Assembly (NCBI RefSeq): GCF_988242995.1
Contig: NZ_OZ547043.1
Strand: one strand, 5' to 3'
Length of the DNA stretch: 64,000 bases
The notes beneath the pieces are model-generated. The model was not told the origin of the DNA. It did not search any database and worked only from the letters and a program-made list of their open reading frames with translations. Both the position numbers and the translations under genes were made by a program. Positions 39,271 to 39,573 of the stretch are shown here, in pieces; within the stretch, counting starts at the first letter, position 1; each line of letters starts with the position of its first letter.

Positions 39271-39357
39271 TGGTACCCGGAGCGGGACTTGAACCCGCAC
39301 AGCGCGAACGCCGAGGGATTTTAAATCCCTTGTGTCTACCGATTCCACCATCCGGGC
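39271..39357 (-). tRNA. leuZ: tRNA-Leu (anticodon UAA), 87 nt
   Basis: minus-strand sequence GCCCGGATGGTGGAATCGGTAGACACAAGGGATTTAAAATCCC...GGGTACCA; long variable arm; CCA encoded. Confidence 0.95.
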
Positions 39358-39369
39358 TCGGGAAGAAAG

Positions 39370-39443
39370 TGGAGGCGCGTTCCGGAGTCGAACCGGACTA
39401 GACGGATTTGCAATCCGCTACATAACCGCTTTGTTAACGCGCC
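39370..39443 (-). tRNA. cysT: tRNA-Cys (anticodon GCA), 74 nt
   Basis: minus-strand GGCGCGTTAACAAAGCGGTTATGTAGCGGATTGCAAATCCG...GCGCCTCCA. Confidence 0.95.
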
Positions 39444-39497
39444 AAATTCTTCAGGCCTTTCAGCCAGACATCCGCTTGAGGCCGATGTCTTTTAAAC

Positions 39498-39573
39498 TGG
39501 AGCGGGAAACGAGACTCGAACTCGCGACCCCGACCTTGGCAAGGTCGTGCTCTACCAACTGAGCTATTCCCGC
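39498..39573 (-). tRNA. glyW: tRNA-Gly (anticodon GCC), 76 nt
   Basis: minus-strand GCGGGAATAGCTCAGTTGGTAGAGCACGACCTTGCCAAGGTCG...CCCGCTCCA. Confidence 0.95.

Follow-up and report, generated by a model that had tools for sequence, protein, structure and literature searches.

Three tRNA genes packed into 303 bp of a bacterial chromosome raise a simple question: is the locus an ordinary tRNA operon in its ancestral state, or does it carry, perhaps in a degraded form, a mobile element of the kind that uses tRNA genes as integration targets? The locus lies in a stretch of 64,000 nucleotides from contig NZ_OZ547043.1 (NCBI RefSeq assembly GCF_988242995.1), which is called the window here; all positions are counted from its first letter. 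The region is almost certainly the housekeeping glyW-cysT-leuZ operon of Escherichia coli in its ancestral state, empty of any inserted element. Earlier work has already documented this operon and how it is processed, the sponge RNA that it yields and the integration of mobile elements at it.

ARAGORN finds exactly three tRNA genes in the whole window, each of them on the minus strand: glyW, tRNA-Gly(GCC), at 39498-39573, the first in the operon; cysT, tRNA-Cys(GCA), at 39370-39443; and leuZ, tRNA-Leu(UAA), at 39271-39357, the last. Rfam agrees on each, with RF00005 scores at the Leu, Cys and Gly sites of 57.7, 54.0 and 69.1 bits (gathering score 29) and E-values of 8e-9 to 6e-13, and by both methods these are canonical tRNAs with the anticodons GCC, GCA and UAA. 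A CCA end is encoded in all three, as read directly from the minus-strand sequence, and the spacers between them measure 12 nt (39358-39369) and 54 nt (39444-39497). The open reading frames and transferred annotation place the cluster between pgsA (39725-40273), the upstream flank, and yecA (38410-39075), the downstream flank, both on the minus strand as well. In all these respects a preliminary description of the locus, made from the sequence alone, had been right about the identities, strand, spacing, CCA ends and neighbours. Its title, leuZ-cysT-glyW, named the correct genes but followed the plus strand, which reverses the order of transcription (glyW, cysT, leuZ). The direction of transcription, the 3′ trailer (3′ETS-leuZ) and the extent of the 124-nt repeat discussed below did not feature in it.

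The K-12 operon b1911-b1910-b1909 is the closest point of reference. It shares with the window the tRNA sequences, their order and strand, the spacers of 54 and 12 nt and the pgsA and yecA flanks; K-12 leuZ (b1909), cysT (b1910) and glyW (b1911) occur as exact strings at 39271, 39370 and 39498 (100% identity). Across 38410-39800 the two sequences differ by four substitutions and no indel, three of the substitutions lying in yecA and one at 39480, in the loop of a hairpin in the longer spacer (hairpin 1 below), where the window has G and K-12 has C; no functional difference from the K-12 operon was found. The window as a whole is collinear with K-12 1,951,768-2,017,856 except for three unrelated differences. 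At about 26727-26734 the window is without the IS1H that K-12 MG1655 carries upstream of flhDC, and the K-12 alignment jumps from 1978502 to 1979271. The fliC-fliD segment (49372-53289) has no megablast match to K-12, presumably because the flagellin (H-antigen) allele is another one and fliD has diverged. At 58506-58573 and about 58644-58800, the window lacks about 1.9 kb that K-12 has, with yedL and the pseudogene yedN, and retains the intG remnant by fliE.

The setting of the cluster is that of the core chromosome. A 1,301-nt query around it has a match in 5,425 of 5,426 complete E. coli genomes, with pgsA/yecA synteny in those 5,425; identity is 100% to several strains, cq9 among them at the tRNA locus, and 99.5% to K-12. 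The opposite idea, that the cluster is a horizontally acquired tRNA set borne by a phage or island, draws on the tRNA-Leu genes of large phages, which match part of leuZ at 80-87% identity. Against it stand the near-universal presence of the locus among the E. coli genomes, its core-gene flanks, and the conservation of the Gly-Cys-Leu order, the promoter and the 3′ETS in 62 Enterobacterales species loci. We regard such an origin as vanishingly improbable, and treat the cluster as a resident part of the chromosome.

Upstream of glyW, a sigma-70-like site on the minus strand (39647-39674) consists of a -35 element TTGACT, a 16-nt spacer and a -10 element TAGAAT, followed by a GC-rich discriminator, GCAACGCATCG. 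It is the only such site in 38900-40000 and agrees with the consensus at 10 of 12 positions. With 0.8 chance sites expected in a scan of that interval, the motif alone is weak; the site is convincing because it is conserved. When the 140-nt regions that precede the Gly gene in 21 Enterobacterales are aligned (Escherichia, Salmonella, Enterobacter, Pectobacterium, Serratia, Rahnella, Hafnia and Edwardsiella included), the -35, the -10 and the discriminator GCAnCGCATC are nearly invariant, and the flanks drift. This conserved site, 39674-39647, is taken as the putative promoter of the operon, and transcription would start at about 39640. The resulting 5′ leader of the precursor, about 67 nt long (39574-39640, minus strand), has two predicted hairpins and a folding energy of -17.3 kcal/mol (z -3.7); none of 200 shuffled sequences folds equally well. 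Other genera in the upstream alignment appear to retain the leader hairpin adjoining glyW, although its sequence differs there.

In line with published work, we infer that glyW, cysT and leuZ are co-transcribed as a single precursor. From the one promoter at 39674-39647 the RNA would run through the leader, tRNA-Gly(GCC), the structured 54-nt spacer, tRNA-Cys(GCA), the 12-nt spacer, tRNA-Leu(UAA) and the 67-nt 3′ETS, and would end at a Rho-independent terminator at 39204-39228. Separate transcription units, or spacers that hold internal promoters or terminators, would be the alternative, and the two stable hairpins in the 54-nt spacer could in principle serve as a pause site or attenuator. However, neither hairpin is followed by a U-tract, the 12-nt spacer is too short to hold a promoter, and the scan of 38900-40000 gives no promoter- or terminator-like site within the cluster. 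In published Northern and array data, moreover, glyW, cysT and leuZ share one polycistronic precursor, which builds up when RNase E is lacking (PMC3082872, PMC2241853, PMC6191717). Independent transcription of the three genes is thus very unlikely, and a single precursor remains the preferred reading.

The processing of this precursor is known in outline: it accumulates when RNase E is inactivated, and the initial cuts in the spacers are made by RNase E (PMC3082872, PMC2241853). The cysT-leuZ spacer at 39358-39369 (minus strand) reads CUUUCUUCCCGA in the sequence, and its start is exactly the cleavage context published for cysT, CCAC|U|UUCU (PMC2241853, Table 3). The Cys-Leu spacer measures 6-14 nt in the 62 Enterobacterales loci. 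As established knowledge of RNase E has it, the enzyme would cut the AU-rich single-stranded parts of the spacers and the trailer. The maturation of tRNAs is completed by RNase P and 3′ exonucleases. The argX-hisR-leuT-proM and tyrT-tyrV operons are built likewise, with short AU-rich spacers, a single promoter, a single Rho-independent terminator and first cuts by RNase E (PMC2241853, PMC3082872). Unlike these two, glyW-cysT-leuZ adds a functional sponge RNA made from the 3′ trailer, and has a covarying hairpin in its first spacer.

The trailer, 3′ETS-leuZ, spans 67 nt (39204-39270, minus strand) and is identical to the K-12 non-coding RNA b4759, so that all 67 nt of the K-12 sponge are shared with the window, including the RyhB-complementary segment and the terminator hairpin. 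Folding gives a 9-bp hairpin at 39207-39228 (minus strand) that runs into a U7 tract at 39204-39210; although a simple terminator scan of 38900-40000 returns no site, this hairpin with its U-tract is the predicted Rho-independent terminator of the operon. The 3′ETS as a whole (71 nt as folded) is not unusually stable (z -1.16). Most of the 62 Enterobacterales loci have a recognisable counterpart of its core, AGCAAUAAGCAGUGUCGUG, and of the terminator.

3′ETS-leuZ is a sponge for the small RNAs RyhB and RybB, with which it pairs (PMC6191717, PMC5222698, PMC7154689, 10.1101/2025.09.11.675593), a finding that goes back to Lalaouna et al. 2015, as relayed in PMC6191717 and PMC5222698. In Salmonella, TIER-seq places an RNase E cut 15 nt past mature leuZ, which releases the trailer (PMC5222698). 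The pairing core for both small RNAs lies at about 39228-39248 (minus strand). For RyhB, AGCAGUGUCGUG of the 3′ETS and CACGACAUUGCU of RyhB form 12 contiguous pairs, and the duplex energy of -45.8 kcal/mol compares with -25.5 +/- 3.9 kcal/mol for the shuffled ETS, none of 500 shuffles reaching it. With RybB, the complementarity between its 5′ seed GCCACUGCUU and AAGCAGUGUC of the 3′ETS is plain to see, whereas the unconstrained duplex energy is no better than that of the shuffled ETS (145/500); unconstrained prediction over-extends duplexes and is uninformative in this case. Pairing with RybB is therefore put forward as probable from the literature and the visible seed match. The sponge activity of the copy in the window is likewise taken from the literature: the released trailer would bind Hfq and sponge RyhB and RybB (PMC5222698, PMC6191717, 10.1101/2025.09.11.675593).

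The 3′ end of the operon has a second role in other E. coli genomes. The preliminary description had remarked that tRNA genes are common integration targets, and this proves apt for the locus: the 1,301-nt query aligns in one piece to 3,780 of the 5,426 complete genomes, and about 1,645 (about 30%) are interrupted exactly here. Among 18 partial-coverage matches sampled across the ranking, 17 break at query positions 395-406, which correspond to 39194-39205 of the window; the remaining one, the lowest-ranked match, covers the tRNA-Gly gene alone. A query from the yecA side occurs at 7,113 places in 5,424 genomes, the extra copies representing the second att site.

The junctions were mapped in six genomes. 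The homology on the tRNA side ends at 39202 (in strain H1, at 39194), and the partial copy on the yecA side starts at 39325 or 39326, at nucleotide 32 of leuZ, with which the anticodon loop begins. These limits give a direct repeat of about 124 nt that takes in this loop and the 3′ half of the gene, together with the entire 3′ETS and the terminator. Window positions 39202-39325 show no mismatch to the yecA-side copies in three genomes, and the element-side copies are identical or nearly so.

The elements themselves are varied. In O157:H7 the insertion is a P2-like prophage whose integrase (Int_N + Phage_integrase) is encoded at the yecA side; in the ST131 strains EC958 and JJ1887 it is a prophage with a Phage_int_M + Phage_integrase enzyme encoded next to leuZ; strain H1 has an island with a P4-type Arm-DNA-bind_3 integrase; and strain 203740 has an IS-laden insertion with no integrase within the 4 kb of flank examined. 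Three N-terminal architectures are thus seen at the same leuZ attB: Phage_int_M (locus L002, 4923-5939), Int_N (L005, 4733-5734) and Arm-DNA-bind_3 (L003, 3797-5014). The gene borders one junction in each of these, and its side of the element differs between phages at leuZ. Phage mEp390 carries a segment that matches attB and is annotated as attP, and phages of Pectobacterium and Yersinia have homologous versions of the att segment. From these alignments, 39202-39325 appears to serve as attB for several tyrosine integrases. In published work, leuZ is the site of the O157:H7 Sakai prophage Sp13 (PMC8190617) and of integrative elements in O145:H28 (PMC7067040), and it is listed as a site for elements in O121 and O145 STEC (PMC8190617, PMC8767318, PMC7067040).

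Is this site occupied in the window? The window has, letter for letter, the 124 nt found on both sides of elements at the Sp13/O145:H28 attB, with its crossover in the anticodon loop. Unlike the occupied sites, it has no integrase, no repeat and no break in synteny. No integrase gene adjoins leuZ, after which yecA comes directly, and none lies within about 19 kb of the cluster. The sole integrase-like sequence of the window lies next to fliE, about 19 kb off: it is a pseudogene remnant, intG, which belongs to the separately annotated cryptic remnant PR-G and has no tRNA fragment beside it.

No direct repeat of a tRNA 3′ part (attL/attR) is present in the window. The last 24 nt of each tRNA and the 27-nt core of the 3′ETS are single-copy in it at up to three mismatches, with zero chance matches expected, and when 39190-39580 is compared with the window by self-BLAST (word size 7), nothing but chance matches of at most 12 nt appears. 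One of the latter, at 57973-57984, matches the 5′ part of leuZ and at first seemed to lie near an integrase fragment; with an E-value of 1.2 it is a chance match, and it falls inside yedK, whose coding sequence is intact here. In strain cq9, yedK (57781-58449 in the window) has an annotated internal stop.

A degraded islet or cryptic element, its integrase lost and a partial tRNA or att duplication left behind, might nevertheless be hidden at such a place: the site is a genuine hot spot, filled in about 30% of complete E. coli genomes and in some of them by heavily decayed, IS-rich elements, and an integrase pseudogene, intG, is present elsewhere in the window. Yet the intergenic regions on both sides, the 128 nt from yecA to the terminator and the pgsA-glyW region, are identical to K-12 and free of indels; each tRNA 3′ end, like the ETS core, occurs just once in the window; no diverged copy of 39202-39325 (below about 85% identity) was detected in the flanks; and intG, far from the cluster, has its own place in PR-G. 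We consider a concealed element highly improbable. The integration site is empty in this window, and the 124 nt at 39202-39325 (minus strand), from the leuZ anticodon loop through the terminator, form an unused attB. The preliminary description is upheld here on each point: there is no integrase nearby, the search of the flanks for duplicated tRNA 3′ ends that it had proposed detected none in the window, and the locus, with its single-copy 3′ ends and its unbroken alignment to K-12, is unoccupied.

By comparison with other attB sites in tRNA genes, the identity block at leuZ is unusually long, as it reaches past the tRNA through the whole 3′ETS and the terminator. As a result, an integrating element substitutes its own sponge RNA and terminator for those of the host. 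Judging from the aligned junctions, the mobile element would supply strains with an occupied site not only with a sponge RNA and a terminator but also with the expressed 3′ half of leuZ. The copy in strain H1 (L003 6001-6162, aligned to window 39194-39357) has a compensatory change of G-C to A-U in the T stem (G63A, C73U) and several changes in the 5′ part of the 3′ETS and in the terminator loop; the core that pairs with RyhB and RybB is unaltered, as it is in all three of the expressed (leuZ-side) copies that were aligned. Junctions of the H1 kind, with element-type sequence, also occur in a genome of Intestinirhabdus alba and in another E. coli (L075, L023).

The remaining feature of the operon is the 54-nt spacer between glyW and cysT (39444-39497, minus strand). 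It folds into two adjacent hairpins (-18.3 kcal/mol, z -3.1), with AU-rich single strands at both ends: hairpin 1 at 39466-39490, identified by folding and covariation, and hairpin 2 at 39454-39465, identified by folding and closed by a GAAA loop, both on the minus strand. The single strands flanking the hairpins are of the type cut by RNase E. A pattern scan with one genome per species gave 66 Enterobacterales loci in which Gly(GCC) is followed by a spacer and Cys; Leu(UAA) comes next in 62 of them, and the Gly-Cys spacers range from 38 to 59 nt. Among the 60 unique spacers, whose median folding z-score is -2.5, hairpin 1 is present in 50, starting 6-11 nt past the CCA and built from 33 different outer stems, and hairpin 2 is present in 29 by per-sequence folds. 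Hairpin 1 is lost in insect endosymbionts.

Covariation in hairpin 1 was scored on a structure-blind MAFFT alignment of a 24-sequence subset; a MAFFT alignment of all 52 spacers, in which Rahnella and Edwardsiella were misaligned, was set aside in favour of this subset. In the 24 spacers, 93% of the alignment cells of hairpin 1 are paired and 7 of its 8 pairs show compensatory changes. A covariation score of 0.689 compares with 0.343 in shuffles, none of 500 shuffled alignments reaching it; controls slid along the alignment score 0.05-0.21. Hairpin 2 is out of register in the same alignment and was judged from the per-sequence folds only.

The element is unannotated in K-12, and we found no mention of it in the literature cited here (for Lalaouna et al. 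2015, in what the two citing papers relay). Rfam has no family for the glyW-cysT spacer or for 3′ETS-leuZ: at a permissive threshold, 39100-39760 yields the three tRNAs and, far below their gathering scores, STnc130, sroD and Ysr197. Elsewhere in the window, small RNA families match at gathering level: MicL at 6674-6981 (minus strand), STnc490 at 49944-50067 (minus strand), C0465 at 20972-21049 (plus strand) and ES036 at 2696-2738 (plus strand).

That hairpin 1, often with the adjacent GNRA-type hairpin 2, is a conserved functional RNA element is a tentative proposal, and one that we hold to be rather doubtful. Two roles may be imagined for it: (i) the hairpin could present the flanking AU-rich RNase E sites and keep the neighbouring tRNAs folding independently, or (ii) it could, by analogy with 3′ETS-leuZ, form a stable RNA that derives from the spacer and has its own binding partner.

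For the annotation of this window, the value of the analysis is a clean account of the locus: a putative promoter, three tRNAs, two spacers, 3′ETS-leuZ, a predicted terminator and an empty attB. For other genomes, the practical sign of an occupied site is a second copy of the 124 nt that run from the leuZ anticodon loop and include the whole 3′ETS and the terminator. The conserved spacer hairpin is a small lead for the processing of tRNA precursors, and it is the only item here that may be worth more work.
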